This document shows, in pieces, positions 4,403 through 63,400 of a DNA stretch of 64,000 nucleotides; the stretch's first letter is position 1, and each line of letters begins with the position of its first letter. The notes under the pieces were generated by a model. It worked only from the letters and a program-made list of their open reading frames with translations, was not told where the DNA came from and did no database searches. Source of the DNA: Planctomycetota bacterium (GTDB lineage Bacteria > Planctomycetota > PLA2); the NCBI GenBank assembly GCA_021776735.1, contig JAJFFH010000041.1, positions 61,553 through 125,552 on the forward strand, in the 5' to 3' direction. The translations under genes were made by a program, and so were the position numbers.

Positions 4403-4945
4403 TCAAGCTAGAACGGGAGCAAACGGACGGCGATATTCGTAGGATGACTCGGGAACAGGGGGGCCGCAGAGCGTCAAAACACGTCTTCGAGGTCCGGCAT
4501 CGGTTCGCCGTCGAACCAAGTCCCGGAGGCGCCTGGTCACCGCGTGGATCGTCAGGGCGGGGAGCGCAACGAGCGTGTAATAGCCGCGAACAGTCACCGC
4601 GCGAATCCACAAGGACGGGAAGTCATCCCCGAGCCCGTAGCTGCGCGCCGAGTACCAGATGGCTCCGAACCCGACGATGGGCGAAACACACGCCGCGATC
4701 ACGACCACGGGACGTCCCCACCGTTTTTGCGAGCAGAGGAGCCACATGATGAGGGCTCGCGGGGCGGCGGACCACCCGACCCGCACGGCGTAGAGAAGCA
4801 TGGGCCGGCTCGCGCTCCATGTGTCCAGACTGCAGGATGCAAGGGTCAGCGCGCCGAAGACGAAGTGCGACCAGTACACCAGCCGGAGCAGGCGCGGCAT
4901 GTCACGCGGCGGCCAAAAGAACTGCCATGAGCTGCGGAGTCCCAT
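4403..4945 (-). CDS. hypothetical integral membrane protein
   Basis: 180 aa, rich in W/F/Y with several hydrophobic segments. This composition is unlike the GC-driven R/A/G/P artefact ORFs. It is co-directional with ispH and the sugar-transferase genes. Confidence 0.45.
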   Translation of the reverse strand: MGLRSSWQFFWPPRDMPRLLRLVYWSHFVFGALTLASCSLDTWSASRPMLLYAVRVGWSAAPRALIMWLLCSQKRWGRPVVVIAACVSPIVGFGAIWYSARSYGLGDDFPSLWIRAVTVRGYYTLVALPALTIHAVTRRLRDLVRRRTDAGPRRRVLTLCGPPVPESSYEYRRPFAPVLA

Positions 4946-5001
4946 GTGCTGACTTGTCGGCGGACATCGCCGTCCGTTTGCCCTTTTTGCGGTTCTATCC
5001 G

Positions 5002-5934
5002 CTACGTCCCGAGGTCCGTGGGCAGCGAGAACTGCACGCGCTCCTCGGCGACGGTCAGCTTTTCGACCGAGGTGGCGCCGTGGTGCCTCAGAGTTTCGAC
5101 GAGCTCCTGCACGAGCGTTTCGGGGGCCGATGCGCCCGCGGTGACGCCGACGGCTGTCGCCCCTTCGAGCCAGGCGGGGTCGAGATCAGCGGGGGTCTCA
5201 AGCAGGTGTGAATGCGCGCCGGCCTGGCGGGCGACCTCGACCAGCCGGTTCGAGTTCGAGGAGTTCGGCGCGCCGAGGACGAGAACGATCCCGCACTCCT
5301 TCACCATGGCCTTGACCGCGTTCTGGCGGTTTTGCGTCGCGTAGCAGATGTCTTCCTGCTTCGGGCCCGTGATCCCCGGATACTTCGCGCGCAGCGCCGC
5401 GACGATCGCCGCCGTGTCGTCCATCGAAAGCGTCGTCTGTGTGACGTAGGCGAGTTCCGTGTCCGCCGGGAGGTCGAGCGTCGCGACGTCTTCGACCTTC
5501 TCGACCAGCGCCATCGTGCCCTCGGGAACCTGGCCGAGCGTGCCTTCGACTTCGGGGTGGCCCGCGTGGCCGATCAGGATCAGGTGCCGCTCCCGGCGCG
5601 CCATCAAGTCCGCCTCGCGATGGACCTTCGTGACGAGCGGGCAGGTCGCGTCGATGTGGTTTAACCCGCGGGCGGCGGCGTCCGCGACCACGCGCTTCGC
5701 GACCCCGTGCGCTGAAAAGATCACGACCGCGCCCTCCGGAACCTCGTCGAGTTCCTCTACGAAGACGGCGCCCTTGTCGCGAAGCCGCTCGACGACATGC
5801 CGGTTGTGGACGATCTCGTGGCGCACGTAGATCGGCGCGCCGTACTTGTTGAGCGCGCACTCCACGATCTCGATCGCACGATCAACCCCCGCACAAAAAC
5901 CGCGCGGTTCGGCCAAAACGACTCGGAACGCCAT
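5002..5934 (-). CDS. ispH: 4-hydroxy-3-methylbut-2-enyl diphosphate reductase
   Basis: 310 aa. Full-length match to the IspH/LytB architecture, with the three conserved Cys ([29 protein letters not shown]) and the SAHGV and SSNSNRL motifs. Confidence 0.95.
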
Positions 5935-5992
5935 GCTCGGACTGTGGCATGGGAACCCGCGCCTGCCAAGTTTGGGGTACTCTCTGGCCGCG

Positions 5993-7171: not shown

Positions 7172-7184
7172 GGAGATGGGCGTC

Positions 7185-8828
7185 ATGAAAAGCATCGCCG
7201 TCCTTGGGCTTTGTTGCTCTGCAATCCTCGCCGACAATGCCGTGCTTCGCGATCACACCGTGATCTCGGGCGGCGCCCGGCGCACCAACAACACGCTGGT
7301 AATCGGCGGACGCAAGGTGCCGCTTGACCAGGTGATCTTGTGGGAAAACAAGACGGGCATTCCCCAGCATGCGCCGACGCTTCAGGGCCACGTCGCCGGG
7401 TTGCGCGCACTCGCCGAACGCACCGTGCTCAAGACCTGCGTGGAACGGCTCCCCAAGGCCGTGTCCGCCAAGGACGGCGATGTTTGCGGACGCCTGCTCG
7501 CGCGCGCCATCGCGGCCGGCATGAACGCGGACGGCGTCGCGCGATGGAGCGCGCGCATCGAGGCCGGGGACAAGACGTCCGGGATCAAGGTGCCGGACCG
7601 CGAGGCGCTCGTCGATCTTCTGGCGGCACGCGCCCTCTCGATCCTCGACGACAACGAAGAGGACAAGCGCGGACTCGCCCTGCTGCGCGAAGCGTTGCGA
7701 CGTGACGCGAAGCACAGACAGGCACTTGAGGTGCTCGACGATTTCGCGCCGGAACGCTGGCGGGTCGGATACGCCAAGGAGGACGACATCCAGCGCGTCT
7801 GGCTCGACTGGAACATCGACGTCATCCAGCCGGGCATGCGCGCGGTCGGCTGGCGCCAGCCCGACGTGCGCAAGGCGGGTAGCGACTTTCGCTGGAAGCA
7901 GATCCGCGGCCCGCGCTCACTTCATGGGGCGCAGACCCAGGAGATCGCGTTCGTGACCGCGATGACGAACTCGAACGTCGTCGGCATGTGCACCAAGTAC
8001 GCCTGGAACTCGTGCAAGGCGCTCGACGAGATGTTTCACATCGAGAAGCCGTTGCGCGACGACAACCTGCCGCTCGTCATCTGGTTTTTTGAAAACAAGA
8101 AACAGTACCTCGACGTGAACGCGGGCCAGGGTGGGCGGCGCAACTTCCTCGCGATGACCGCGGGCTTCTATTCGCCCGGCGACAACATCTCGCGCTTTTT
8201 CTGGCCGACGAATCATCCCGCTCCGGCGCGCTCGGTGCGAGACACCTTCGTCCACGAACTGACCCACCATTGGATCCAGCGCCGCAACCCGCGGCTCGCA
8301 CCAAGCCTGCTCATGCGCAGCGTCAGCGTCCCCGGCTATTGGATCGTCGAGGGGTTCGCGACGTTCATCGAGGAAGGGCGCTACAACATCCGCACGAACG
8401 GGCGCTCGCACTTCAACGCGCACGCGAACTCGATCGACGTCATCGCAAGCCTCTCCGAGAGAGGCGAACTCATCCCGTGGCCGAAGCTGTACACGCTGTC
8501 GCAGGTCGATTTCCGCAATCCGAAAAAACTCAACCAGACCAAGCTCAGCGCGACCGCGCACAAGCGCTGGGCGACGCGCCCGCAACCGTTCCGTGCGATC
8601 CGACAGTTCTACGAACAGTCTGCCGCTACGTGCCACTACCTCTACTGGGGCGAGAAGGCCAAGTACCGCAACAAGCTGCTCGACTACGTCACCGTCTACT
8701 ACACCGCCCAGGAGGGCAAGACGGCGATCGAGGCCGCCTTCGGCATGACCGAGGAGGAACTCGGCAGACGGGTCGAGAAGTGGTGCAAGTCGGTGATCAA
8801 GAACGGCTGGCGCCCGCCGGGCGAGTAG
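7185..8828 (+). CDS. putative secreted zinc metallopeptidase (HExxH; DUF1570-like)
   Basis: The second ATG (7185) gives the signal peptide MKSIAVLGLCCSAILA, with AAGGAG 10 nt upstream. An HExxH zinc-binding motif sits in FVHELTHHW. The size and motif context resemble DUF1570 proteins. Confidence 0.6.
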   Translation: MKSIAVLGLCCSAILADNAVLRDHTVISGGARRTNNTLVIGGRKVPLDQVILWENKTGIPQHAPTLQGHVAGLRALAERTVLKTCVERLPKAVSAKDGDVCGRLLARAIAAGMNADGVARWSARIEAGDKTSGIKVPDREALVDLLAARALSILDDNEEDKRGLALLREALRRDAKHRQALEVLDDFAPERWRVGYAKEDDIQRVWLDWNIDVIQPGMRAVGWRQPDVRKAGSDFRWKQIRGPRSLHGAQTQEIAFVTAMTNSNVVGMCTKYAWNSCKALDEMFHIEKPLRDDNLPLVIWFFENKKQYLDVNAGQGGRRNFLAMTAGFYSPGDNISRFFWPTNHPAPARSVRDTFVHELTHHWIQRRNPRLAPSLLMRSVSVPGYWIVEGFATFIEEGRYNIRTNGRSHFNAHANSIDVIASLSERGELIPWPKLYTLSQVDFRNPKKLNQTKLSATAHKRWATRPQPFRAIRQFYEQSAATCHYLYWGEKAKYRNKLLDYVTVYYTAQEGKTAIEAAFGMTEEELGRRVEKWCKSVIKNGWRPPGE

Positions 8829-8919
8829 AAGCGAGGATCGACCTCGAGTAGTCGGGACAGGCTATACTCCGTCCCGATTCGAAATTGCGCGACAAACGCG
8901 CATACAGGAACGGACGGCG

Positions 8920-9489
8920 ATGCCCTTCGATTTGACGAGCTACACGATCCGGCGCAAGATCCTCACGATCCTGGGCGCCAAATTCCACGTCTACCGGCCG
9001 GATGGCTCTGTGGCGGCGTTTTCCAAGCAGAAGGCGTTCAAGCTGAAAGAGGACATTCGTCTGTTCACGGACGAGACGATGGCCACCGAACTGCTGTCGA
9101 TCCAGGCACGGCAGATTATCGACTTCGCCGCGGCCTATGATGTCGTCGATTCGGCGGAGGGACGAAAGCTCGGCGCGGCCCGGCGCAAGGGATGGTCGTC
9201 GATCTTTCGCGACTCGTGGGAGGTGCTGGACGAAGACGACCAGCCCATCGCGAAGCTGAAAGAGGACAGCGCCCTCGCGGCATTCGTACGCCGGATGATC
9301 GGCCTGATTCCCCAGACGTTCCACCTCAGGGGGATGGACGGCAAGCCGATCGCCACGTTGCGCGTGCGCTTCAACCCGTTCGTCTACAAACTGGATGTCG
9401 AGCTTGACCCGGACTGCGAACTCGATTCCCGTCTGGTCTTGGCTGTGGGCGTTCTTCTCGCGGCCATCGAGGGCCGCCAGAAGAGTTGA
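8920..9489 (+). CDS. hypothetical protein, possible LURP-one-related/tubby C-terminal-like fold
   Basis: 189 aa with balanced composition. The family call is tentative, by eye only. Confidence 0.4.
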   Translation: MPFDLTSYTIRRKILTILGAKFHVYRPDGSVAAFSKQKAFKLKEDIRLFTDETMATELLSIQARQIIDFAAAYDVVDSAEGRKLGAARRKGWSSIFRDSWEVLDEDDQPIAKLKEDSALAAFVRRMIGLIPQTFHLRGMDGKPIATLRVRFNPFVYKLDVELDPDCELDSRLVLAVGVLLAAIEGRQKS

Positions 9490-12087: not shown

Positions 12088-12204
12088 TCCGAGAATCCGC
12101 ATGGCGGATTCTCGATAGTCCGGGCCGGGTGCGGCTTCGCCGCTCGCGGCCCCACCCGAACCCGAACCCGAACCCGAACATGAGCGTGAATCGCCGTCCG
12201 TTTG

Positions 12205-16283: not shown

Positions 16284-17419
16284 GCCCGAGACGGCCCGCA
16301 GCCACTCTGCTGAAGGGCGCGACGATTTTTTACGCGGTTCTCGCGCTGCTCGCGTGGGGCTGGGCGGGCGTGTTCGACATCGCCCTGCTCGGAGAAACAT
16401 CGCCGTCCGTTCCTGCCGTCTTCCATGGCTTCATCCTGGGAATCGGTGTCGTCGTCTTGTCCGGCGCGCTCTACGCCGGATCACGTTCCGTGCGCCGCTC
16501 GTCGGAAATCCTCGAGCAGTTCCTGCGCGGCACGACCGTCCTCGGTGCCGTCTGGCTCGCGCTGATCTCCGGCTTCGCGGAAGAGGTCATGTTTCGCGGC
16601 GCGCTGTTCGGACAGCTCGGCCTGATCGGCACGTCGATCTTCTTTGGCCTCTGCCACTTCGTGCCGCTGCGCGCGTTTTGGTGGTATCCGATCTATGCCG
16701 CGTTCGCCGGCTACCTGTTCGGCGTACTTCGCGGCAGCAGCGGATCGGTGTGGCCGTGCGTCGTCGCGCATGTCGTTATCAACGGCATCAACCTGTCGTG
16801 GCTCGCGTGGCGAGTTCGAAAGCACGGCCGGCGGGTGCGGCGAACAACGACAACAGGAACGGACGGCGATGTTTCCCACGGCGAGGATCCCGACGCGTTT
16901 GCGCTGCCGGAAGAGATCGACGTGCCGGACACGTTCCCGTTCACGGTGTGGCGCTACGACTTGCGCGTCGAGCCGTCGGGCACGGATCGTCAGAATCTTC
17001 CGCTTTGCCTCGAAGGGGAAAACCTCGCGCTGTTTTCGTACGTCGACCGCGAAGAAGTCTACGACGCGCTACGCGGCGGCCGGTTTATCTTCGCCGAGTC
17101 GTTTCGCGCACCGCTGCGCCCGTTCCCCCACGATGTCGCGGCGTTTTCGGCGTACGTGTTCGACATCGTCACGGGCATCGAAGTAGCCGAGCGATATGTA
17201 GACGAAACCAGAACCGACGACGTCCGCGCCTGGAAGGTCGTGGCAAGACGCGGCGAATGGGTCAAGGTCCCCCTCGAAGTCCAACAACCCGAACCGGGAA
17301 GATTCGAAGTAGACCCCGACGAAGAAGATCAAGGCGTCCTGCGCGCACAGTGGACAACGTACCCCCGCTGGTTCCAGGACGGCATGCGTTTCAAGTACCC
17401 GCAACTGCGCGACTTGTAG
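16280..17419 (+). CDS. CPBP family intramembrane glutamic endopeptidase (CAAX protease/Abi-like) fused to a C-terminal soluble domain of unknown function
   Basis: The ATG start overlaps the upstream stop (ATGA). The TM domain carries motif 1 GFAEEVMFRG and FFGLCHF / VVAHVVING (motifs 2 and 3). A ~190 aa acidic C-terminal domain follows. Confidence 0.75.
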   Translation: MSPRRPAATLLKGATIFYAVLALLAWGWAGVFDIALLGETSPSVPAVFHGFILGIGVVVLSGALYAGSRSVRRSSEILEQFLRGTTVLGAVWLALISGFAEEVMFRGALFGQLGLIGTSIFFGLCHFVPLRAFWWYPIYAAFAGYLFGVLRGSSGSVWPCVVAHVVINGINLSWLAWRVRKHGRRVRRTTTTGTDGDVSHGEDPDAFALPEEIDVPDTFPFTVWRYDLRVEPSGTDRQNLPLCLEGENLALFSYVDREEVYDALRGGRFIFAESFRAPLRPFPHDVAAFSAYVFDIVTGIEVAERYVDETRTDDVRAWKVVARRGEWVKVPLEVQQPEPGRFEVDPDEEDQGVLRAQWTTYPRWFQDGMRFKYPQLRDL

Positions 17420-17490
17420 CCCGTCCGCCCACCGCCGGCTTGTCCGCCATGGCCCGCAAGGGCGACGACAAGAGGCGTCTCTGCGGACGC

Positions 17491-49475: not shown

Positions 49476-50624
49476 ATGGCCATCATGCGCCTCGTGGTTG
49501 TTTGCCTGCTCGCGGCTGTTGCCCTTGCGGACCTTACTCCCGACAAGATTGCCTTGCTTCCGGGGCTGTGGCCCCGCGAGCGCCGCGCTGTCAACCGCGC
49601 GCTCAAACAAGCCGACGACCCGCACGCAACACTTCGCGGGGCAGGCATCGCGGGTGATCTGGTCACGCGCCTCGACGCGATCACCTCGGGCGCGTGCCTG
49701 AACGAGCGGTACGCGCATGCACTGGTCCGCACCATCCCCACGCTGACCGACAAGCAGCGGCGCCTCTTCGCACAACTCGTCCCCGCGACGGACGGCGCAC
49801 AGCAAGCCCTCCTCGCCCAGCGAACGCGGCTCGAGCATCTGCCGTCCAGCGAAGGCGAGGCGCTTCGCAAGCGTCTGCGCGCGCAGTTCGATCTGCAGCA
49901 CGTCCGCATCGAGAAGCGCTTTTGGCGCGTTGCGCTCTACGCCCTGACGAAGGAACAGCGCGCATGGATGCGCCCGCGCCAGCTTCAGCCCTACTCGTTC
50001 CCGCTCGACGCGCTCAACCACGTCTATCAGCTCCCGGGCCTGACGCCGAGCCAGGCCGCGCGCGTCCAGGCGCTCGTCACCGAATACGAATCGGAGTCCG
50101 CGGCCGACGCCGCCGAGAACGCCCGCCTCCAGACCGAACTGACGCGCGCGGACCCGACCAAGCGCGAGCGCCTCCAGAAAGCCGCGCAAGCCGTGACCGA
50201 CCGCCTCGCCTACCGCCTCAAAGACGTGATCGAACGCAGCGTCGCCATCTACACCGGGGCCCAGATCAAGGAAATCGACGCGATCCCGCCCATGACCTCC
50301 GCGGCCGACCGCCACCGCCATCCCGGCGACCTCCTCCACGGCCTCACGCTGACGCCGGACCAGACCAAACGCGCGCACGCGCTGGGCCGGCGCATCCAAC
50401 GGGCCCACCAAAAAGCCGGCCGCGAACTCAACACACGCCGCCGGAAACTCGCCGCCGCCGAAATGGGCTCCGACGCCCCGCAAGCGCTGACGATGCAAAT
50501 GATGCAACACAACGCCACGGCCGAGCGCGTCGCCGCCATGGAACAGGCCGGTCGCAAACTCGTCCTGGAGGTCCTCACCCCGTCCCAGGTCGCGACGTGG
50601 GTCGTCTCGCCTCACGAGAGGTAG
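49476..50624 (+). CDS. periplasmic LTXXQ-motif repeat protein (Spy/CpxP/ZraP-like)
   Basis: The start is trimmed to MAIMRLVVVCLLAAVALA (signal peptide). There are six LTxxQ motifs (LTPDK, LTDKQ, LTKEQ, LTPSQ, LTPDQ, LTPSQ) in an all-helical Arg/Ala/Gln-rich protein. Confidence 0.65.
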   Translation: MAIMRLVVVCLLAAVALADLTPDKIALLPGLWPRERRAVNRALKQADDPHATLRGAGIAGDLVTRLDAITSGACLNERYAHALVRTIPTLTDKQRRLFAQLVPATDGAQQALLAQRTRLEHLPSSEGEALRKRLRAQFDLQHVRIEKRFWRVALYALTKEQRAWMRPRQLQPYSFPLDALNHVYQLPGLTPSQAARVQALVTEYESESAADAAENARLQTELTRADPTKRERLQKAAQAVTDRLAYRLKDVIERSVAIYTGAQIKEIDAIPPMTSAADRHRHPGDLLHGLTLTPDQTKRAHALGRRIQRAHQKAGRELNTRRRKLAAAEMGSDAPQALTMQMMQHNATAERVAAMEQAGRKLVLEVLTPSQVATWVVSPHER

Positions 50625-50734
50625 ACGAAGCAGGCCAGAAGACCCTCGCAGGCGAAAGCGTACGGACGGCGATGTCTTGGAGCTGGCCGTGGTCTTTCGG
50701 CCGGCGGCGCAGGTTTGGACGACCCTCTGCAATT

Positions 50735-50932
50735 CCATACCGAGCCCGGCACAAAAGAGCGACTTTGGCCTCCCTTTTGACGTAACCTCCTGCAAGGCAA
50801 TCACTTACGCCTCCGACGGCCGCGCAGTCCCGTAACTTGTTTCCACATAACGAGTTACGTCTCCCACGCGCCTAAAACCACCCTTTTGTGCCGGGCTCGG
50901 TACTGCCGGCCAGCAGGGCTCGGTACTGCCGG
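50735..50932. repeat. MITE-like element with 17-bp perfect terminal inverted repeats
   Basis: The left arm is CGAGCCCGGCACAAAAG (50741-50757) and the right arm CTTTTGTGCCGGGCTCG (50883-50899), 125 bp apart. An inner palindrome is GTAACTTG...CGAGTTAC. A direct repeat GGCTCGGTACTGCCGG x2 follows. The left end (CCATACCGAGCCCGGCACAAAAGAGCGA) is also present as a solo copy at 4282-4309. Confidence 0.6.
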
Positions 50933-51042
50933 CTGGCAACGCACCCAATCAACAGGGAGCACCCGATGGCTCCGGGGCCGCGGCGGTCCATGGCTTCCGG
51001 AAATCCGTGAGAACTTCCCGGCGCGATTACGTCAAAGCAGAC

Positions 51043-51789
51043 ATGAGAATCGCCGTCGGTTTGCTTACGTTCGTTTCCGCCGCTGTTTCTTGTTGGGCGC
51101 CTCTCGAACTGGGCGCCGCCTTGGCGGAATCCGACCTCGTCGTCGTGGCCACGCTGGAGCGGGACAAGAAACCCAAGCCCGGCTTCGGCACGCTGCGCGT
51201 CCACAAGGTCCTCGCGGGCAAGAAGCCGAAGATCTGCACGCTGCGCTGGCTGCCGGAAAACGTCATGGCTCCCAGCGGCGTCATGCGGCACCACCACCGG
51301 GTCGGGCAGCGACTCGTCTACCTGCTGAAAGAGAACGCGGACGGTTCGTACGGAGCCGGCCACCCCACGCTCATCCAGGATCCGAAACGGCTGCCGGAGC
51401 TTCGCAAGGCCCTGATGGGCCCGCTGTATCGGCTGACGCTGGAAAAGTACTCCGTGAAGACCGGCCGGGCCGTCTGGGCCGTACTCGAGATTCGTACCGT
51501 ACAGCCGAAGCTGACTACCGACCGATGGTTGCAAACGGACGGCGATGTCTTGGAACGCGGCGGCCTGGCGCGGCTCGCATTGCTACGCCAGGGCCAAACC
51601 GAGGTCAGGGGTAAGGTGCGCCAGGCCGCGAAGCCCAGGGGAATCGTGGTCACGCCGGACAAGCCGCACCGTGTTCGCCTCGACCTGCGCCGGTACTTCG
51701 ACCTGAAACCGGACACGTCCTACCGGCTCTGGTTCGGGGAAGGGCCGCAGCGCCGCTCCCGGGTCGCCGTGTTCCGCATCGTCAAGTAG
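51043..51789 (+). CDS. hypothetical secreted protein
   Basis: The start is trimmed to MRIAVGLLTFVSAAVSCWAPLELGAALA (signal peptide). It is Lys/Arg-rich with beta-strands. Confidence 0.5.
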   Translation: MRIAVGLLTFVSAAVSCWAPLELGAALAESDLVVVATLERDKKPKPGFGTLRVHKVLAGKKPKICTLRWLPENVMAPSGVMRHHHRVGQRLVYLLKENADGSYGAGHPTLIQDPKRLPELRKALMGPLYRLTLEKYSVKTGRAVWAVLEIRTVQPKLTTDRWLQTDGDVLERGGLARLALLRQGQTEVRGKVRQAAKPRGIVVTPDKPHRVRLDLRRYFDLKPDTSYRLWFGEGPQRRSRVAVFRIVK

Positions 51790-51856: not shown

Positions 51857-54184
51857 TTGTTTGTGATGAGAAACATCGCCGTCCTTGGCTCCCTTCTGAT
51901 GCTCGCCCTTGTTTCGCCGCGCACGCTCGCGCAGGAGCGGCAGGACACGCTGTTCCTGCACGCGACGCAGGTCGTGGTTCCGCAGCACCGCGCGTACATC
52001 TTGCGCAGAACTTCTGTGTCGCGCCGGATCAGGCCCCCTATTCGGGTGCAGCCCGTCCGCATCGAGGGGGTTTCGGTGCACGTGAAGATTCGCGAGCGCG
52101 CGGCCACGACGACGCTCGAAATCGCGCTCGTGAATCCCGCGGCGCGCCAGGCCGAAGCGGTCTTGCTGCTGCCGGTGCCCGACGGCGCGGCCGTCTCCGC
52201 GTTTCACTTCGACGGGGTCAGCAAGGAGCCGACCGCGCGCATCCTGCCCAAGGACGAGGCGCGGCGCATCTACGACCGCATCGTGCGCAAGATGCAGGAT
52301 CCGGCGTTGCTGGAATTCGCCGGCCACGATCTTGTGCGCTCGAGCGTGTTTCCGGTGCCGGCGCACGGACGCCAGAAGGTGCGGCTCACCTACGACCACA
52401 TGCTCCCGGCGGCAAACGGACGCATCGACTACGAGCTTCCGCGCAGCGAAGCGCTGGACACGGGAGCCCCCTGGAACGTCACGGTCGACATCGTCTCGAA
52501 GGCGCCGATCGCGACGGTCTACTCGCCGAGCCACGCCGTCAAGACGTTTCGCAAGGGCGACAAGCACCTGACCGTAAAACTCGACGGCAAGGCTGATCCG
52601 GGCGCGTTTCGGCTCTCGTACATGATCCAGCGCGATGCGGTCACGGCGTCGCTGTTTGCGTATCCCGATCCCAAGATCGGCGGCGGGTACTTCCTGCTTG
52701 TCGCAGGTATGCCCCCGCGCGGCAAGACGGTCGCCGCGACCGTGAAGCGCGAGGTCACGATCGTGCTCGACCGCTCCGGCAGCATGGCCGGCGAGAAGAT
52801 GGATCAGGCCCGCGCCGCTGCGCTCCAGGTGATCGAGGGGCTGCACGACGGCGAGGCCTTCAACATCATCGACTACTCGACCACCGTCGAGATGCTCGCG
52901 CCGCGACCGTTGATCAAGACCCGCGAGACGCTGCTCAAGGCGCGCCAATACATCGCCGGCCTGCACCCGGTCGGCGGCACCAACATCCACGACGCGCTGG
53001 TCGAAGCACTGCGCCAGGAACGGGTCGACAAAACGATGCTCCCGCTCGTGCTGTTTTTGACCGACGGCCTGCCCACGATCGGCCAAACGTCGGAAAGCGC
53101 GATTCGCAAGGCAGTGGAGACCGGCAATCCGTACCGCCGTAGGGTGTTCACGTTCGGCGTCGGCGACGACGTCAACGCGCCGCTGCTCGACCGCGTCGCC
53201 GAAATGACGCGCGCCGTTCCGACCTACGTGCGCCCGAAGGAAAACGTCGAGGTCAAGGTCGGCGACGTCTTCGCGCGCCTGTACGGCCCGGTGTTCTCCG
53301 ACGGCAAGCTCACCACGGTGGACAGTGGCGGCACGGTCGTCACGGACGTGGCGCACGATCTGATCCCGGCGGTCGTGCCCGACCTGTTCGACGGCGACCA
53401 GCTCGTTGTACTCGGCAAATACCGCGGCAAGGGGCCGCTGCGCTTCCGCCTCAACGGAAGTTTTCTGGGCAAGCCGAAAGCGTTCGACATGTCGTTCTCG
53501 CTCGCCGAAGCGACAACGCGCCACGCGTTTGTCCCGCGCCTCTGGGCCAGCCGGCGCATCGCATACCTGGTCGATCAGATTCGCCAGGCGGGCGGCAACC
53601 TGCCCCGCGGCCACGTCAGCCGCGTCGGCCAATCCATCGCGAACGACCCGCGGTTCAAGGAGCTGTACGCCGAGATCCTGCGCCTGAGCGCCGAGTTCGG
53701 CGTCCTGAGCGAGTACACCGCGTTCCTGGCAACCGAAGGCACGGTGCTGCACGGCTCTCGCAGCCTGGCCTCGTTGCTGCGCGAGCAGCTCGATCGCAAG
53801 GCCGTAAAAACACGCTGGGGCCGCGCCGCCGTGAACCGCGCGCAAGACAACGACCGCGGCAAGAAGCAGGTCGCCGTCGATAAGCGCAACCGCTACACGA
53901 GCCCGGAGGGCAAAACGGTCACCATCAAGGGCTGCCAGCAATACAACGACCGCGCGTACTTCAAGCGCGGCAAGACGTGGATCGACGGCGCGATGATCGC
54001 CGGAAAGTCGGCGCCCAAGACCCTGAAGCCCGACATCACGATCCAGTTCGGTACCCCGGAGTTCACCAAGCTCCTCGGCGAACTCGTGAAAGCCAACCGC
54101 CAGGGCGTGCTCGCGCGCCGCGGCGATCTCTATCTCCGCTTCAAGAACAAGACAATCCTGGTCCGCAACGATTGGAAGGAATAA
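51857..54184 (+). CDS. VIT (vault protein inter-alpha-trypsin) plus von Willebrand factor A domain protein
   Basis: The signal peptide is MRNIAVLGSLLMLALVSPRTLA. The N-terminal region is VIT-like. The vWA domain carries the MIDAS motif TIVLDRSGSM, plus LTDG and FTFGVGDDVN. A long C-terminal domain follows. Confidence 0.8.
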   Translation: MFVMRNIAVLGSLLMLALVSPRTLAQERQDTLFLHATQVVVPQHRAYILRRTSVSRRIRPPIRVQPVRIEGVSVHVKIRERAATTTLEIALVNPAARQAEAVLLLPVPDGAAVSAFHFDGVSKEPTARILPKDEARRIYDRIVRKMQDPALLEFAGHDLVRSSVFPVPAHGRQKVRLTYDHMLPAANGRIDYELPRSEALDTGAPWNVTVDIVSKAPIATVYSPSHAVKTFRKGDKHLTVKLDGKADPGAFRLSYMIQRDAVTASLFAYPDPKIGGGYFLLVAGMPPRGKTVAATVKREVTIVLDRSGSMAGEKMDQARAAALQVIEGLHDGEAFNIIDYSTTVEMLAPRPLIKTRETLLKARQYIAGLHPVGGTNIHDALVEALRQERVDKTMLPLVLFLTDGLPTIGQTSESAIRKAVETGNPYRRRVFTFGVGDDVNAPLLDRVAEMTRAVPTYVRPKENVEVKVGDVFARLYGPVFSDGKLTTVDSGGTVVTDVAHDLIPAVVPDLFDGDQLVVLGKYRGKGPLRFRLNGSFLGKPKAFDMSFSLAEATTRHAFVPRLWASRRIAYLVDQIRQAGGNLPRGHVSRVGQSIANDPRFKELYAEILRLSAEFGVLSEYTAFLATEGTVLHGSRSLASLLREQLDRKAVKTRWGRAAVNRAQDNDRGKKQVAVDKRNRYTSPEGKTVTIKGCQQYNDRAYFKRGKTWIDGAMIAGKSAPKTLKPDITIQFGTPEFTKLLGELVKANRQGVLARRGDLYLRFKNKTILVRNDWKE

Positions 54185-55352: not shown

Positions 55353-56030
55353 ATGGCCCGCACAGTTCTCGTAGTCGAAGACGATGCCGCGATTCGCCGC
55401 GGCATCGTCGATACCCTCGCCGCCGGCGGGTACCGCGCGCTCGAAGCGGGTGCCGGCGACGAGGCGCTCAAGATGGCGCTGGAGCAGGATCCCGATCTGT
55501 TGGTGCTCGACATCAAGCTGCCCGCGATGGACGGCTTCACGGTGCTCGAGGAGCTGCGCAAGTCGCGCCCGTCGCTGCCCGTGATCATCGTGACCGCACT
55601 CGGCAACGAGTCGGACCGCGTGCGCGGTTTGCGCATCGGCGCGGACGACTACGTCGTAAAGCCGTTTTCCGCGCTGGAGCTTCTCGAACGCGTCAAGGCG
55701 GTCCTGCGTCGCTCCGCCGAGCGCCCGGAAACGGTCGGCACGATCGAGATCGCCGGGCGGACGATCAACCTCGAAGAACGCCTGATCACGTTTGCCGACG
55801 GACACACCTCAGACATCTCCGAGAAGGAAGCCGAGTTGCTGCAATACCTCGCGGCCTCGCGCGGCCGGACCGTGAGCCGCGACGAGTTGTTGCAGCATGT
55901 CTGGGGTCTTGATCCGAAGGGGGTCTCGACGCGCACGATCGACATGCACATCGCGCGGCTGCGCGACAAGCTCGGCGACGACGCCGGTCTGATCGCCACG
56001 GTGCGCGGCAAGGGCTACCGGCTCGCGTGA
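55353..56030 (+). CDS. OmpR-family two-component response regulator
   Basis: The receiver domain carries the phospho-acceptor Asp in VLVVEDD...LLVLDIKLPAMDGF...YVVKPF. The C-terminal winged-helix is RDELLQHVWG...TRTIDMHIARLRDKL. Confidence 0.9.
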   Translation: MARTVLVVEDDAAIRRGIVDTLAAGGYRALEAGAGDEALKMALEQDPDLLVLDIKLPAMDGFTVLEELRKSRPSLPVIIVTALGNESDRVRGLRIGADDYVVKPFSALELLERVKAVLRRSAERPETVGTIEIAGRTINLEERLITFADGHTSDISEKEAELLQYLAASRGRTVSRDELLQHVWGLDPKGVSTRTIDMHIARLRDKLGDDAGLIATVRGKGYRLA

Positions 56031-57637
56031 CGACACGCTGGCTGTGGCCCGGATTCATCGCGACAAACATCGCCGTCCTTGGCGTTCTCGCCTGGGCTTC
56101 GGCCAAGGTGATGGAGCTCGAGCGCAACGAGACCCGTGCTCTCGCGGATGCCCGGAACGAGAAGCGCTTCCGGGTCGCCATGCGCGAGGTCGAGCAAGAC
56201 GTGCTTTTGTTCCTCGAGCGCGAGCAGACGCGGCCGCCGCGTTCCTACCGGCCGTTCGCCGAGTTGCCACGTCGCGCGTACGCCAAGCGCGACCTCCAAC
56301 AGATCGAGCAGGACGAGATTCTCGCGCAGTCCGAGTTGCTGGGCGAGGACAAGCCGGCGTTCACGTTGCTGCACTTCGAGACGAACCGCGACGGCGAGGT
56401 TGTGTCGCCGCAGGTGCCGGGCGCGAACTACTACGAGATTTGCGGCATCGCGCCAGCCACGATCGAAAAAAACAAGACGCACCTGGCGCGCGTGCGACAG
56501 ATGGTGGACGTGCGCGAGCTCGCGCGGCAGGTCGCGCGCGAGACGGCGTGGCGAAACGCCCGCGGCGACCAGCGCGCGGGCAAGAAGATGAAGGGCGCCG
56601 ACAACGTCGACGCGACGATCGGTCCGCTGCAACCGGTACTGCACGACGGTGAGCTGTTCTTCATGCGCGAAATCCGCCACGCGGGCCGCTACTTCCAGGG
56701 GTTCCTCATCGACTGGCCGAGCCTGCGCGCGCACCTGCTCGGCCTGATCCATCCGCGCTTTCCCGGCGCGAGACTCCGGCTCGTCGCCGACGATGCCGCG
56801 CGCAACCTCGTGTCCCTACCGGCGACCCTCACGGTCGTGCGCCCGCCCGTCGGCCGCCGCGGCTGGACGGCGTCGCACACGGTGCTGCTTACGACGTGGC
56901 TCGTCGTCGGGTTCGCACTCGCGGTCGCGGGCGCCGCACTGCACCGCGCGCTCACGTTCGGACAAAAGCAGCGCCGCTTCGCGAGCAACGTCACGCACGA
57001 ACTGCGCTCGCCGCTCACGACGTTTCGGCTGTACTCCGAGTTGCTCGCCGCGGGCCTCGTCCCCGACGACGAAAAGAAGGCGGAGTATCACGCCACGCTG
57101 CACCGCGAGTCGGGCCGCATGGCGCAGATGGTGGAAAACGTCATCGCGCACGCCCGCCTCGAAGAGGGCCGCGCGCACATGCAACCCCGCCCGATCGCCA
57201 TCGGCGCGCTCCTCGAAGACTGTCGTCCGGACCTCGAGCGCCGCGCAGGCGTCCACCCGCTGACGATCGAAACCGACGCGGTCAAAGACATCGCCGTCCT
57301 GGCCGATCCCGCCGCCGTCGGCCAGATCCTGGTCAACCTGATCGAGAACGCCGCAAAATACGCCCCGGGCCCGATCACGCTGCGCGCCCAAGTCCACCAC
57401 CGCACCGCACGCCTGCACGTCCGCGACCAGGGCCCCGGCATCCAACCCGACGAAGCCCGCCGCATCTTCCAACCCTTCGACCGCGGCCACAAAGACGAAA
57501 CCGACCCGGTCCGCGGCCTGGGCCTGGGCCTCGCGTTGGCCAGAGGTCTGGCGCACGACCTGGGCGGCGACCTGACGCTGGAACATCCGGACGCCGGCGG
57601 CGCCTGCTTTGTCCTGACGCTGCCCTTGGCGGGGTAG
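56027..57637 (+). CDS. sensor histidine kinase
   Basis: The GTG start overlaps the regulator gene stop. There are two TM helices and a periplasmic domain. The H-box is SNVTHELRSPLT, the N-box LVNLIENAAKYAP, the G1 box RDQGPGI and the G2 box GLGLGLALARGLA. Confidence 0.9.
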   Translation: MTTRWLWPGFIATNIAVLGVLAWASAKVMELERNETRALADARNEKRFRVAMREVEQDVLLFLEREQTRPPRSYRPFAELPRRAYAKRDLQQIEQDEILAQSELLGEDKPAFTLLHFETNRDGEVVSPQVPGANYYEICGIAPATIEKNKTHLARVRQMVDVRELARQVARETAWRNARGDQRAGKKMKGADNVDATIGPLQPVLHDGELFFMREIRHAGRYFQGFLIDWPSLRAHLLGLIHPRFPGARLRLVADDAARNLVSLPATLTVVRPPVGRRGWTASHTVLLTTWLVVGFALAVAGAALHRALTFGQKQRRFASNVTHELRSPLTTFRLYSELLAAGLVPDDEKKAEYHATLHRESGRMAQMVENVIAHARLEEGRAHMQPRPIAIGALLEDCRPDLERRAGVHPLTIETDAVKDIAVLADPAAVGQILVNLIENAAKYAPGPITLRAQVHHRTARLHVRDQGPGIQPDEARRIFQPFDRGHKDETDPVRGLGLGLALARGLAHDLGGDLTLEHPDAGGACFVLTLPLAG

Positions 57638-57737
57638 GAAGCAACACCGGAAGGAAAGCAAACGGACGGCGATGTTTGTCCGACCTCGAACCGCCCGCGC
57701 GGCAACCCAGACTGACGGACAATGCTCGCCAAGGTTC

Positions 57738-58165: not shown

Positions 58166-58500
58166 TCGGGCCGCATGGCGCAGATGGTGGAAAACGTCAT
58201 CGCGCACTCGCGCCTCGAAGAGGGGCGCGCGCGCATGCAACCGCGCCCGATTGCACTCGGCACGCTCCTCGAAGAGTGCCGCCCGGATCTGGAGCGCCGC
58301 GCAGGCGTCCACCCGCTGACGATCGAAACCGACGCGGTCAAAGACATCGCCGTCCTGGCCGATCCCGCCGCCGTCGGCCAGATCCTGGTCAACCTGATCG
58401 AGAACGCCGCAAAGTACGCCCCGGGCCCGATCACGCTGCGCGCCCAAGTCCACCACCGCACCGCACGCCTGCACGTCCGCGACCAGGGCCACCCCAGCGG
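58161..58500 (+). pseudogene. duplicated fragment of the histidine kinase HATPase region (copy of 57106-57435, ~93% identity), not a functional gene
   Basis: A nucleotide-level near-repeat of the HK gene segment encoding GRMAQMVENVIAH(A/S)RLEEGRA...LVNLIENAAKYAPGPITLRAQVHHRTARLHVRDQG. It lacks the H-box and a start codon, and it is preceded by intergenic repeat sequence. Confidence 0.6.
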
Positions 58501-58504
58501 CGCC

Positions 58505-60121
58505 ATGCAACGGAGCAGACTCCCTCGACGGACCTCGCCACTGAGTACCGCACGTCCTCGGCTACAATCGCGCGCAGTGTCGTGGCTCAAGGTTCTGGTA
58601 TTCGTGGCGCTGATCGCGGCTGCGTATCTCCTCTCGCGCCACAGAGCCACGCCCTCCATGGTGCCGCAAGGCGAGGTACAAGTCGGCGCGGACCATGAAC
58701 TGGAGTTCCGCGCCGAGACCGTGGCAATCCCTGGTGGACGACGATTTCATCTGTCGTCGCGGAACGGAGTCGTCGATTTGGTGTTGCTCGACGCCAAGGG
58801 CGCTGGACGGTTTGCGTTCGGCGATGGACGATTTGAACAGCGCACCGCTGAGCCCGGAGCGGGCTTTGTTTCGGATGTTGCGGCGTGGCTCGACAAGTCG
58901 ACACCGCCTCGAAAACCGGGCCGGCTTGCAACATTCCTCTTCTCCTACGTGCGCCTCGGCGCAACAGACGGCTGGGAAGCGAACAAACTGTTTCTGCGCT
59001 TCGGTGCCCGCGAAGCCGAGGTGTATCTGAACGTCGCGCCCGATGGCAAGCGCGTCCGCCTCCTGGAGAAACATCAGGACTACGCGGCCGACTTGCTCGC
59101 AGTACTCGCCATCGCCGTGCGGGACGGAATCCCTCCGCGCAGATCGACAAGCAGCGACAAGCACATGGCCTCGGACGAACCCCTGTTTGCTCGGCCCACT
59201 TCGCTGACCGCGCAGGGTCGGCTCCACGACGGAGTGTGGTCGACGACGGGATTCGTCGGAATCATCGACAACCGCCGCGTCGTGCATTGGGCGAGCCCCG
59301 GGGCAGAGCCGACAACGGTCGGGACATCGATCGGTATCGTCACGGCACTGGCGCCTGCGCCCCGTAGCACTCGGATCGCCGCCGTGGTTGTGCATCCGAA
59401 GCGGGACGGTTCCTACTCAAGCGAGGATCCGACCGAACTGGTGATCTTCATGCCCGGAAACGAACCGCGTACGCTGTTGCGCTCTGAGGTGGAATTCAAG
59501 CTGATGAGTCACGCATCGGTGGTCTGGTCACCGGATGGGACACGCCTTGCCGTCTCAGCGCCCGGCGGCAAGAAAGTCCCACGGAAGAGCCACGTGAGGG
59601 TCATCGACGCCCGCTCCGCGGAGGTGCTGCAGAGCACGGAGAAGGCGCTGGACCTGGAACCGGTGCTGTGGTCGGCGAAGGGGCTGACGTTGGTGCGGCG
59701 CGACTTTGTAGGCGCGGACATCCTTGAATCGCACTACTCGTGGGATCCGGAGCACGGAGTTCCGAAGAAACTGCCCGCGCTGAAAGGTGTTTCGTCACCT
59801 GACGGTCGTTTCCTGGTCGGGGCGGAGGGCCAAGGTGTCCTGGTTGTCTGGGGTCCCGATGGATCGCGAAGATACGCCAGCCAGTCTGAAGAAGACCGTG
59901 CCGTCGTGAGTTCCTTGAGCGAGTTTCCGATCGTCTGGTGTGGTCCACACCACGTCGTGCTGGGAACAGATGATCCTGTCGTACTCGACCTCAATACACT
60001 CACCGTGCGACTGCTGTTCCCTGCGCGGGCCTGGACCCTGGTCGCGGCGAGTCCTGACGGCGACAACGTACTGTGCCTTTCGCCAGACGGTGAAGCGCAT
60101 TGGGGGAGTACGAAAAAGTGA
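58505..60121 (+). CDS. membrane-anchored PD40/TolB-like beta-propeller repeat protein
   Basis: The ORF track fuses this gene to the upstream HK fragment. The likely start is the ATG at 58505 or the GTG at 58578, before the TM helix WLKVLVFVALIAAAYLL. The C-terminal half has WSPDG/SSPDG/ASPDG/LSPDG repeats typical of PD40 blades. Confidence 0.5.
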   Translation: MQRSRLPRRTSPLSTARPRLQSRAVSWLKVLVFVALIAAAYLLSRHRATPSMVPQGEVQVGADHELEFRAETVAIPGGRRFHLSSRNGVVDLVLLDAKGAGRFAFGDGRFEQRTAEPGAGFVSDVAAWLDKSTPPRKPGRLATFLFSYVRLGATDGWEANKLFLRFGAREAEVYLNVAPDGKRVRLLEKHQDYAADLLAVLAIAVRDGIPPRRSTSSDKHMASDEPLFARPTSLTAQGRLHDGVWSTTGFVGIIDNRRVVHWASPGAEPTTVGTSIGIVTALAPAPRSTRIAAVVVHPKRDGSYSSEDPTELVIFMPGNEPRTLLRSEVEFKLMSHASVVWSPDGTRLAVSAPGGKKVPRKSHVRVIDARSAEVLQSTEKALDLEPVLWSAKGLTLVRRDFVGADILESHYSWDPEHGVPKKLPALKGVSSPDGRFLVGAEGQGVLVVWGPDGSRRYASQSEEDRAVVSSLSEFPIVWCGPHHVVLGTDDPVVLDLNTLTVRLLFPARAWTLVAASPDGDNVLCLSPDGEAHWGSTKK

Positions 60122-60495
60122 GATCGCAAGCGCGGTCGATAGCCCGACACGGAAGTGAGAGACACGGAGTCAACCCGATTGGCCGGGCCGATCGCGCGAA
60201 ACCATCCGGGCGGCGCTGCTCTCCGCGAATCGCGCCATCGGACTGGCGCGATTTCGGCCCTAGTCGGTGCGGCAGGATTACATGGCGCCGTACTCTCCTT
60301 ATCGCGCCACGGGCCTGGCGCGACTCACCGCGGATCGTTGCCGCAGGATTGCCTGGCACAGTATCCGACATGAAGCTCCTGACGCGCTGATGCTCCCCGG
60401 CAAGGCGATCCCCCGCTCAGCCCCCTTCCCCCACATTCCGAAATCCGATCTGAAACGATCCGATCGGCCCGGGAACTCGTTATCGGAATCAGACG

Positions 60496-63400
60496 ATGAC
60501 GGCTCGTTCGCGGATTGATCCTGAAGCGCTGCTCGCGCATCGCGACTTCGTGCGGGCGCTTGTGCTGCGGCTCGTTGGGGAGCCGCACGCGGCCGACGAT
60601 GTCGTGCAGGAGACTTGGCTCGCGGCGTTGCAGAACGCGCCCGCTCGGCCGCGATCGCTGCGGGCGTGGCTCGCTCGCGTGGCGCGCAATCTCGCGTTGC
60701 GACACGCGCGCCGGGAGGTCCGGTTGCGCCAGCGCGCACGCAAGGCCCCGCAGCCCGACGCGCCTCGCGATCCGGCAGGCGCGCTCGAACGCGTCCACGC
60801 CGAACACGCCGTCGTCGCCGCGCTGCTCGAACTCGACGAGCCGTACCGCACCACGCTCCTGCTGCGCTATTACGACGACCTCGCCCCACGCGAAGTCGCG
60901 GCGCGGCTCGGCGTCCCGGCAGCGACCGTCCGCACGCGGCTCAAGCGCGGCCTCGACACGCTGCGCGCGCGCCTCGACCAACAACACGGCGGACCCGACG
61001 GCGGCCGACGCGCCTGGGCGCTCCCGCTCATCCCGCTCCTGATTCCGATCGCGGCCGTCAAAGGGGCGGCGGCAACCACGGGAGGAATCGTGCTCATGAC
61101 CGGCAAAGGCAAGGCACTCGCCGCGGCGGCACTCCTACTCGCCGCGCTGCTCGGCTTCTGGAAACTCTCCGACCGCGCCGGCACGCCGCGCGCACGCACT
61201 GATGCCGAGCGTCCCACGCAAGGCGGTCCGATCACGAGAAAGCAAACGGACAGCGATGTTCCCGAGCCGGCGCGCGACCGAGCGACTGTCGCCGTCGCGG
61301 TGCGCGTCCTGGACCCCGACGGCCACCCTGTTCCGGACGCGCAGGTCGGCGCCTACGCCATGGCTCACATCGAGCTCGGCGTGCCGCTGTTCACCGGACA
61401 AGACGACCTCTTCGCGGTTTCAAAACCGGTGCTGACCCGTCGCACCGACGCAGCCGGCGAGGCGTCGTTTCCCCTCCCCCTGTCCACGAGCACGGTGTTT
61501 GAAGCGACGGCGCAGAGCCATGCACGGGCACGCTCACGCGTCGTGGCGCTGCCCGCCGGCAGCACGGCTCCGCCTCCGGTCGTCCTACACCTGCGCCCGG
61601 CGCACGCGCTCACCGGCACCGTGCGCGACGACACGGGGGCACCGTGGCCGGGTGTCGCCGTGTGGTTGACGTCGCCCACGTTCGGCCAGCGTCTTCCCGT
61701 TCGCGAGTTGGCGGCCCGCACGATCACGGACAAGCTGGGGCGTTATCGCTTCGGCGATTCGGCTGCGGGTGACTACGGCCTTTGGTGCGGCTCCCCGGCC
61801 GCGAGCCCGTCGCGCCGGGCGATCGTGCGACTGCCTCACGTCACCGTGTTCGATGTCGTGCTGCCGCGCGGTGGTTGCGTGCACGGTGTCGTCACGCGAA
61901 CCGATACCGGCGCGCCCGTCGCCGGCGCTACGGTCGAGATCCACGGCGTGAAGGGCTCGCTCACGAAGGTCCGCACGAACGCGCAGGGCGAGTACCGCGT
62001 CGCGCATCTCGGCGGCCGCGCCGTTTTCCGCATCCGGGCGCGCGCCGCCGGCTTGTGCCTGCGCCTCGAAAACAACGGACAGGACCACCGCTGGATCCCG
62101 CTCGGCGCGGACGAGACCTACCGCCACGACCTGAAGCTCGAGTCGGCGCCCGAGGTGTACGGCGTCGTCCGCGGCCCCGACGGGCCGCTCGCCGGCATCG
62201 CCATCGCCGCGTATCACCAGGCGCCTCAGTGGCACCTCAACGGCGCGCGCACGGTCACGGACTCCGAGGGCCGCTATCGGTTGTCCGTCGCCCCCGTCCG
62301 CCACCAACTCAGCGCCGCAGGCGGCGGCTTCGCGGTCCCCGCTAACCAGCAGTGGCTTCGTCCGCTCGACCAGGCGACCGGCAGCGAACCGTTCGTCGTC
62401 GATGTTCCCGAGCGCGGTGCGATCCGTTGCGATCTTGAACTTGCGTCCATGCGCGCCGGGGGAATTCGCCTCGCCGGACGCGTGACCAACGACACGGACG
62501 ATCCGGTCGCCGGGGCCCTGGTCAGTGTGTTCATGCAACGTACCTGGACCGACGCTGCCGGCGCGTTCGAGCTCGACGGAATCAAGGGCGAGCAGACGTG
62601 GGTCGTTGTTGCCGCCGACGGCTTTCGCACGATCCAAAAAAGCATCGCCGTCCGTTCCGGTAGTCCGATCTCGCTCACGCTGGAACGCGCGCGCACCGTG
62701 ACCGGCCGGGTCACCGCCGGCGACGGCGCGACACTGGACGACGCCGCGGTTCTGATCGCGGTCTTGCCTCGCGGCTGGGCCCGCACTCGGGACCGCGCCG
62801 CGAAGTTCGACGCGCTCTGGAGCCGCGCCGAGCGCGTGCGCGCCGCCCGCGACGGATCGTTCACGTTCACGGTTGTCGATGGCCGCCTCCGCTACGTGCG
62901 CGCGACGGCCCGCGGGCGGTCGCTCGGGCCGCCCGTCGCTCTCGGCTCCGGCGACACCGAGCTCGTGCTGACCGTGCCGGAGGGCGGCGCTCGAACCGGG
63001 CGCGTGCTCGACGCCGACTCCGGAGAGCCGATCGCCGGCGCTCGGATTCGCACGCAAGGGATAGGAGCGGCGCGACACAACCCGTTCGCCAAGGACGGCG
63101 ATGCCTTTGGACCGAATGCGCCCGTCGTGGCCGTGTCCGCCGCGGACGGAACGTTCGTGGTCGCGCGGGCCCCCACGCATCGAGTTCGCGTTGCGGTGGA
63201 AGCGTTCGGCTACCGGCCGCACGAAGTCGTCGCGGACGAGTCGATCGGCGAGGTGCGTCTCGCGCCGAATGCCGTCGGCCTCGCGGGAACCGTGCGCTAC
63301 GACGACGGCGCGCCCGCCATCGGTCTTGTCGTGTTCGCCGATCCTGCGGACGGCAAGTCACGACGCGTGTCCGGTCTCGGCACGAGTCCGACCGGCCGCT

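Follow-up and report, generated by a model that had tools for sequence, protein, structure and literature searches.

A short asymmetric DNA word recurring every two kilobases in a planctomycete genome: a candidate uptake tag

Introduction

Whether sequence-specific recognition of self-DNA has evolved beyond two proteobacterial families is the question raised by a 64,000-nucleotide stretch of DNA (hereafter the window) from Planctomycetota bacterium, an uncultured organism known as a metagenome-assembled genome (MAG; assembly GCA_021776735.1, contig JAJFFH010000041.1, positions 61,553 to 125,552 of the forward strand). Throughout this window, which has a GC content of 66%, a word of 10–12 bases, ACGGACGGCGAT, recurs in either orientation at roughly one copy per 2 kb. 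The obvious points of comparison are the DNA uptake sequences (DUS) of the Neisseriaceae and the uptake signal sequences (USS) of the Pasteurellaceae, which number hundreds to thousands of copies genome-wide (about 0.3–1 per kb) and serve uptake through a receptor (ComP, or the predicted ComN) working with a type IV pilus and ComEA/ComEC. For decades these two families have been the only ones from which uptake-enhancing sequences were known (bioRxiv 10.1101/2025.10.24.684340). Both kinds of sequence occur in both orientations, originate by mutation and homologous recombination and are under-represented in coding DNA; within genes they show a frame bias linked to codon usage, an enrichment of the tripeptides they can encode and a preference for poorly conserved gene parts, and they exist as dialects (PMC2817400; bioRxiv 10.1101/2025.10.24.684340).

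A first-pass annotation of the window, made from the sequence alone, had noted the word and likened it to these uptake signals. Here we establish that the motif is an asymmetric recognition word, acting at the level of DNA and read on the duplex, which is lineage-specific and young and has spread by point mutation, and that it is actively maintained and tolerated mainly where proteins permit it. As to what reads it, we tentatively favour an uptake tag, and weigh this against the alternatives below.

Results

The enrichment of the motif is confirmed. The 11-mer GGACGGCGATG has 23 exact matches on the two strands of the window, against 0.16 ± 0.37 in dinucleotide-preserving shuffles, which bears out the first-pass claim of hyper-abundance far above chance. 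Allowing up to three mismatches, the 20-mer AGCAAACGGACGGCGATGTT has 17 matches where 0.00 are expected, while the 12-mer ACGGACGGCGAT with up to one mismatch marks 29 sites, 14 on the forward and 15 on the reverse strand. Two 11-mer cores at 57289 and 58345 bring the total to 31 (Table 1); these two are not independent of each other, since the histidine-kinase paralogues that carry them (56027–57637 and 58175–60121) share an identical 26-nt stretch with the core. All 25 coordinates reported at the first pass are true copies, to which six sites are added here (7470+, 8910+, 29926−, 31000+ with one mismatch, 57289− and 58345−). Relative to controls, consisting of 510 kb of GC-matched (62–72%) loci of other bacteria, the perfect 10-mer core is 72-fold enriched (0.42 per kb in the window, 0.006 per kb in the controls), one-mismatch variants are just 1.5-fold enriched and two-mismatch variants show no enrichment. 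Core densities of 0.39–0.74 per kb are found across three separate genomic regions of two lineages, and the density measured over the 64 kb and the separate loci would extrapolate to thousands of copies per genome.

Alignment of the copies on the 12-mer gives the consensus RR-AGCAA-ACGGACGGCGAT-G-YYY, around a core GGACGGCGAT(G), and the word is non-palindromic. Conservation spans about −7 to +17 around the 12-mer, with none beyond; the flanks, AGCAA on the 5' side and G-YYY on the 3' side, played no part in site selection and carry ~8.5 bits, answering the first-pass suggestion that extended flanking conservation be sought. Because conservation stops past these flanks, the copies are, as the first-pass annotation had supposed, independent short sites and not pieces of an insertion sequence (IS) end, a miniature inverted-repeat transposable element (MITE) or any larger repeat. 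A derivation from mobile-element fragments (IS end, MITE or a relative of repetitive extragenic palindromic (REP) elements), from a protein-coding repeat or from an assembly or adapter artefact has the repetition itself in its favour and nothing more. Homology ends at ~24 nt, without the palindromy or extended flank homology of REP, MITE or IS-end sequences; 21 of the 31 copies are intragenic, so that the motif is not limited to intergenic DNA, and copies lie in frame within unrelated genes whose proteins are themselves unrelated. An artefact is contradicted by copies at orthologous positions in independent assemblies of the Joint Genome Institute (JGI) and Logan, and a purely protein-level cause is rejected by the synonymous-codon test described below, so we regard this whole group of explanations as effectively refuted. 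An arrangement with palindromic flanks (GCAAAC...GTTTGC) was also considered and rejected, both arms being present in just 3 of 29 copies.

Cumulative GC skew is monotonic along the window, so the 14+/15− balance does not arise from averaging two replichores. The counts reject a Chi-like 75:25 orientation skew (P = 0.006), in agreement with the first-pass view that the motif is balanced in orientation, unlike Chi. Orientation alternates along the window slightly more often than at random (19 runs against 14.5 expected, z = 1.8), a marginal tendency. These data bear on the idea of a Chi-like or 'self' tag read by a defence system or by a helicase-nuclease of the RecBCD or AddAB kind, through which the cell would modulate how its own DNA is degraded or recombined. 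The density of one per 2.2 kb is close to that of Escherichia coli Chi and the word is lineage-specific, as such a tag could be; Chi words and the polar words of FtsK (KOPS) are, however, co-oriented with replication, known Chi sites are of 5–8 nt, and we consider this explanation highly improbable. More broadly, the motif is like Chi, KOPS and architecture-imparting oligomers in being a hyper-abundant short asymmetric word read on DNA, and unlike Chi and KOPS (5–8 nt and strongly co-oriented with replication) in its length of 12–20 nt and its lack of skew.

Placement relative to genes was analysed with our own codon-usage gene caller, which agrees with Logan calls over 8 kb. Intergenic copies number 10 of 31, about one third rather than the half given at the first pass, compared with 15% of the DNA (P = 0.014), and 16 of 31 are either intergenic or no more than 100 nt from a gene end, in a zone that makes up 31% of the DNA (P = 0.012). 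Three of the intergenic copies lie between convergent gene ends, so that a promoter or operator role is out of the question for those three; this, together with the ~21 intragenic copies, led us to reject sites of a transcription-factor regulon. An extracytoplasmic function (ECF)-type promoter (GGAAC...CGTC) was rejected for want of a conserved second box downstream, and a start-codon or ribosome-binding-site element because a start codon coincides with copy 8910 only.

Of the 22 genic copies, about 20 fall in a single codon phase (P = 3e-8), sense copies reading ACG-GAC-GGC-GAT, or (T/K)-D-G-D, and antisense copies ATC-GCC-GTC-CKT, or I-A-V-(R/L). The word imposes minority codons (GAT, 25% of Asp; CGT, 10% of Arg; CTT, 9% of Leu, the last already picked out as rare by the first-pass annotation), DGD is spelled GACGGCGAT in 11 of 20 cases, and the tripeptide IAV is found 15 times, its reverse VAI 4 times. 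The forced minority codons, the preference for GACGGCGAT and the excess of IAV indicate that the constraint acts on the DNA and that the proteome has been shifted too. Permuting synonymous codons, with proteins and codon usage kept, leaves 3.1 ± 1.6 coding copies where 19 are observed, and permuting codon order within genes leaves 0.7; the initial proposal of conservation at the DNA rather than the protein level thus stands. Genic copies occupy signal peptides, variable loops and gene ends. In protein alignments the residues they encode (IAVLG in signal peptides, KDGD or TDGD in loops) are confined to motif-bearing lineages, and in 9 of 10 usable site–orthologue comparisons, covering 8 distinct sites, local identity is 0–5 of 11 residues against 42–62% gene-wide. 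The exception is site 56069, with local identity slightly above the gene-wide value.

An element acting in RNA, either in a 3' untranslated region or elsewhere in mRNA, as the target of an RNA-binding protein or small RNA could account for the five intergenic copies that lie 3–58 nt past a stop codon in sense orientation, and for the excess of sense over antisense among genic copies (13 against 9). Those nine antisense copies, several of them kept in the relative, count against it, as does the use of the same codon phase in both orientations, a property of the DNA duplex. The copies also have neither a common secondary structure nor an Rfam family, and an RNA-level role seems to us scarcely credible.

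The motif is shared with a sister lineage, represented by JGI contigs Ga0255745_1008579, Ga0255745_1004521 and Ga0248485_1008830 and a Logan contig (GC 72–73%; IspH 88% and a VIT-VWA protein 80% identical), in which two separate regions of the genome carry the same core, at 0.39–0.71 per kb. When syntenic blocks (59–77% DNA identity) were aligned with MAFFT, an intact copy was retained at the orthologous position for 9 of 14 window cores, compared with 9% of other 10-mers (P = 5e-7), and some of the kept cores stand in intergenic DNA whose flanks are filled with indels and unalignable, for instance after ispH and after the YtoQ-like gene. Sites present in a single lineage are mostly one or two substitutions away in the other, the rest falling in poorly aligned or unalignable DNA. 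Sites thus arise and disappear through point mutation, and those that have arisen are maintained. Flanking sequence is not the same in the two lineages, AGCAAAC-core-GTTT in the window and CCA-GGACGGCGAT-GCTTTC in the sister lineage: 'AC' stands before the core at 19 of 27 window sites and at 3 of 14 sister-lineage sites (P = 0.007), 'CAAAC' at 9 of 27 and 0 of 14 (P = 0.017).

This mode of turnover invites an explanation without any reader, in which the motif would be the side effect of a mutational or repair bias with sequence specificity, such as very-short-patch-like repair or biased gene conversion of near-matches. Near-matches do become copies through single substitutions, the word is lineage-specific, and no associated machinery was seen within the window or the relatives' loci. 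Known biases, on the other hand, act on words of 4–6 bases and not on 12–20 bases with ~30 bits; the two-sided flanking consensus, with its different form in the sister lineage, points to a macromolecular footprint, and one-mismatch variants stand 1.5-fold over controls instead of being depleted, as efficient conversion would make them. We judge a repair bias improbable.

Beyond the sister lineage the motif disappears. Syntenic loci L048, L131/L132 and L133 (IspH 78–80% identical; 5–21 kb each) contain no motif copy and no other hyper-abundant 10–12-mer, and the motif is thus present at 88% IspH identity and absent at 80% or below. Among the syntenic genomes lacking it are the SRR15505517_14691 lineage, Ga0451564_000878 and Ga0224508_10014086. 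Its establishment appears to be recent, as sister lineages with ~80% identical housekeeping proteins are without it. In metagenome contigs with IspH at most 64% identical, taken as a negative control, there are 4 copies in 717 kb. A 17-mer scan of genome contigs gave, among the matches listed, 46 single chance matches in unrelated taxa, none with a second copy, and a 16-mer scan of viral contigs gave 19 single chance matches and no motif-rich phage; full-text literature searches for the word itself returned unrelated primers only. At locus L155 of a more distant relative (VIT protein 62% identical), two perfect 10-mer cores (8892 and 10063) occur in 15.7 kb without the flanking consensus, where ~0.1 would be expected from the controls; these could be chance or the trace of an older low-level presence.

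Table 1. Copies of the motif in the window, with their placement in genes (ORF, open reading frame) and their state in the relatives L049 and L153.
Position	Strand	Match	Placement	Relatives and remarks
4423–4434	+	exact 12-mer, AGCAA 5' flank	antisense, last codons/3' end of ORF 4403–4900(−)	unalignable in L049
4966–4977	−	exact	intergenic, 24 nt past ispH/lytB stop	core kept at orthologous place in L049, flanks are indels
7194–7205	−	AAGG variant	antisense, codons 4–7 of signal peptide (MKSIAVLG)	kept in L049; motif-free orthologues have other residues here
7470–7481	+	AAGG variant	sense, KDGD	kept in L049; variable loop in A1
8910–8921	+	exact	terminal ATG is start codon of LOR-family gene 8920–9489	kept in L049
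12190–12201	−	exact	convergent intergenic spacer, 3 nt past YtoQ-like gene stop	kept in L049
14929–14940	+	exact	sense, TDGD, E1 dehydrogenase gene	one core base different in L049
16399–16410	−	exact	antisense, off-phase, close to 5' end of Rce1-like gene	
16859–16870	+	exact	sense, TDGD	
21025–21036	−	full 20-mer consensus match	sense, TDGD, Kelch/Big_5 protein gene	
24132–24143	−	exact	sense, TDGD, close to 3' end of anti-sigma gene	
26525–26536	−	1 mismatch (ACAGACGGCGAT), full flanks	intergenic, 58 nt past a stop codon	
29926–29937	−	exact	antisense, IAVR	
31000–31011	+	weak; 1 mismatch (ends GAG)	sense, TDGE	possibly proto-site or decayed site
32738–32749	+	exact	sense, TDGD, close to 3' end of SPFH gene	
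33912–33923	−	exact, AGCAA flank	intergenic, adjoins palindrome 33885–33911	
36447–36458	+	exact	intergenic, intrinsic terminator on one side, LysR gene start on other	
40627–40638	−	exact	sense, TDGD, S9 peptidase gene	local identity to motif-free orthologue 1/11
41588–41599	+	exact	sense, off-phase, close to 5' end of esterase gene	kept in L153
50662–50673	+	exact	intergenic, 37 nt past a stop codon	
51049–51060	−	1 mismatch (ACCGACGGCGAT)	intergenic	
51535–51546	+	exact	sense, TDGD	
51875–51886	−	AAGG variant	antisense, signal peptide MRNIAVLG of VIT-VWA protein	kept in L153
54280–54291	+	AAGG variant	sense, KDGD	kept in L153
56069–56080	−	AAGG variant	antisense, IAVL, N-terminal membrane segment of histidine kinase	one base different in L153
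57289–57299	−	exact 11-mer core, CCA 5' flank	antisense, IAVL, histidine kinase 56027–57637	
57662–57673	+	full 20-mer consensus match	convergent intergenic spacer, 24 nt past a stop codon	
58345–58355	−	exact 11-mer core	second histidine kinase (58175–60121), paralogous to 57289 site	kept in L153
61246–61257	+	1 mismatch (ACGGACAGCGAT), full flanks	sense, TDSD	
62644–62655	−	exact	antisense, IAVR	
63091–63102	+	AAGG variant	sense, KDGD	

The genes of the window are ordinary: sugar transferases, IspH, an E1 dehydrogenase, ECF sigma/anti-sigma pairs, DUF4331 and DUF4198 proteins, an SPFH protein, peptidases, VIT-VWA proteins and two-component systems. The IspH sequence has a 100% identical counterpart on a Logan contig of SRR15505515, and its close named homologues all come from 'Planctomycetota bacterium' MAGs. 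No Rfam match and, with ARAGORN, no tRNA was found in the window. For the gene described at the first pass as PilX-like (34104–36347), Pfam gives neither a pilin nor a PilX match with the threshold relaxed to E ≤ 1. Its 747-aa product is anchored in the membrane at the N-terminus and matches the YTV repeat marginally, and in-frame 36–39-nt tandem repeats within the gene (35087–35588) encode (E)TYTVEVPVYEE-like units. The 700-bp spacer upstream of this gene holds perfect palindromes at 33669–33697 and 33885–33911 (13-nt arms), the second of which adjoins motif copy 33912 and lies outside the motif consensus. Two genes at 49476–51789, of 382 and 222 aa and without a Pfam family, have no counterpart at this place in the syntenic relatives L153 and L155. 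At 60562–63999 a single stop-free frame begins with ECF sigma regions 2 and 4, continues with Big_1 and at least 8 CarboxypepD_reg repeats and runs off the window end; this frame represents either a single sigma factor carrying a giant extension at its C-terminus or a merger of two genes by the gene caller.

Several other repeats are present. Intergenic C-rich microsatellites with 6–7-nt units (CCGATCC, CCCGAA, ACCCGA; up to 24 copies) occur at 12154–12179, 17490–17567, 25278–25313, 25387–25419 and 38588–38743, and are prone to form G-quadruplexes because the opposite strand reads GGGxxxGGG...; one such array directly adjoins motif copy 12190. In an intergenic spacer at 38397–38609, a 113-bp unit is duplicated in tandem (93% identical) and continues into a long CCGATCC array, while 22979–23034 holds 2.9 repeats of a 19-nt AT-rich unit (TTTCCCCTACATTTATGGC) within a ~1-kb stretch (22.1–23.1 kb) without a callable gene.

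Discussion

Judged by its sequence behaviour, the motif is DUS/USS-like on most testable genomic criteria and yet is not a member of either class by descent. The Neisseriaceae DUS has the core GCCGTCTGAA, with the 12-mer AT-GCCGTCTGAA and several dialects, and its receptor ComP is a minor type IV pilin. The planctomycete motif is like it in its 10–12-nt asymmetric core with dialects between related lineages, in a density of about one per 1–2 kb in both orientations with an intergenic excess and a genic frame bias, and in apparently building up in permissive places via mutation and recombination. The two also have the hexamer GCCGTC in common, on the reverse strand; where the DUS core continues after GCCGT with CTG, the motif has CCG, and the remainder is different, so that the shared hexamer is no evidence of relatedness and the two are not homologous. 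Further differences are the host phylum, Planctomycetota (66–73% GC), the extra 5' AGCAA and 3' G-YYY and the lack of terminator-forming inverted pairs.

The Pasteurellaceae USS is accompanied by flanking AT-rich segments and has a predicted receptor, ComN/PpdA. It resembles the motif in combining a core with weaker flanks, in copies that are mostly genic in one or two preferred frames with the encodable tripeptides enriched, in favouring poorly conserved protein segments and gene termini, and in having positions shared by related species with turnover by point mutation. The mild excess of the coding orientation is also seen for the USS of A. pleuropneumoniae (PMC2817400). The motif differs from the USS in showing no sequence similarity, no terminator pairs and, in 64 kb, spacing not detectably more even than random. 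The GCCGTC-like core that the first-pass annotation ascribed to DUS and USS alike is present in the Neisseria DUS and missing from the Pasteurellaceae USS, AAGTGCGGT / ACAAGCGGT (PMC2817400). Cyanobacterial HIP1 (GCGATCGC) and the REP/BIME (bacterial interspersed mosaic element) sequences are further lineage-specific, hyper-abundant short words, and HIP1 is likewise found within genes; both are palindromic, with REP intergenic and structured, in contrast to the asymmetric, unstructured and longer motif.

DUS and USS are the sole well-understood class with this combination of features, and for this reason we prefer to read the motif as an uptake or self-DNA tag, whose reader would be a receptor associated with transformation and whose copies uptake bias and recombination would multiply; we hold this reading as plausible rather than probable. 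We further infer that the reader is an uptake receptor and the host competent. On such a scheme the natural-transformation machinery would include a DNA receptor, at the surface or in the periplasm, that preferentially binds double-stranded DNA bearing the word; uptake and recombination of same-species DNA would thereby become more frequent, every such recombination would spread and restore copies of the motif (molecular drive), and selection on proteins would restrict the copies to tolerant places. The analogy with uptake signals drawn at the first pass gains from the frame bias, the excess in intergenic DNA and poorly conserved segments, the turnover by point mutation and the lineage-specific flanks, and loses from the absence of inverted terminator pairs.

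That absence is one of several points that weigh against an uptake tag. About half of DUS and USS copies lie in terminators; the window has no closely spaced inverted pairs of the motif, with a minimum of 278 bp from one copy to the next, and folding the 10 intergenic copies with their surroundings revealed no common hairpin and no motif-based terminator hairpin, copy 36447 sitting outside the obvious terminator. DUS and USS copies are more evenly spread than chance would place them; spacing of the motif has a coefficient of variation of 0.90 against 0.97 for random placement (P = 0.38), a comparison for which 64 kb affords little power. DUS and USS are said to be rare in recently acquired DNA, and a 2.5-kb segment absent from relatives at this position carries three copies (50662, 51049 and 51535). 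No competence or type IV pilus genes were found in the 64-kb window or in the relatives' loci. We know of no description of natural transformation in the Planctomycetota, and literature searches produced no report of it. Lastly, the specificity peak is very sharp, the 72-fold enrichment of perfect cores falling to 1.5-fold with a single mismatch.

The last point would suit the main rival explanation, in which the copies would be bound with high affinity by an abundant, sequence-specific cytoplasmic protein acting as a monomer, either as sites of a nucleoid organiser or as the word of a non-polar DNA translocase or transfer protein (the recognition repeats of Streptomyces TraB, for comparison, are of 8 bp). 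Sites would then be kept by selection for a chromosome-level function rather than by uptake bias. Besides the sharp specificity, this would fit the retention of sites at orthologous positions whatever the coding context, the asymmetric core used in both orientations and the lack of any window gene tying the motif to competence. Known sites for nucleoid organisation or segregation (parS, matS, Noc and SlmA sites) are, on the other hand, palindromic and tens of times rarer, and a function needing one site per 2 kb would be expected in syntenic sister lineages, which have neither the motif nor a substitute word. Turnover by single substitutions and flank dialects also suit a drive process more naturally. 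We therefore regard a binding array as unlikely, though deserving of more weight than any other alternative to the uptake tag.

Were the uptake reading wrong, a conserved asymmetric word of 12–20 bp every 2 kb would still require a reader. Were it right, the motif might represent a third system of DNA-uptake specificity, of independent evolutionary origin and the first from beyond the Proteobacteria, with its own 12–20-bp tag (ACGGACGGCGAT core), a possibility that we advance with slightly more reserve than the uptake reading itself. It would mean natural transformation with self-preference in the Planctomycetota, in a young system whose origin is bracketed phylogenetically between the lineages that have the motif (88% IspH identity) and those that lack it (80% or below). 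The receptor gene could then be pinpointed by comparing the gene content of motif-bearing and motif-free genomes, and the word would provide a practical tag for better genetic transformation of planctomycetes.

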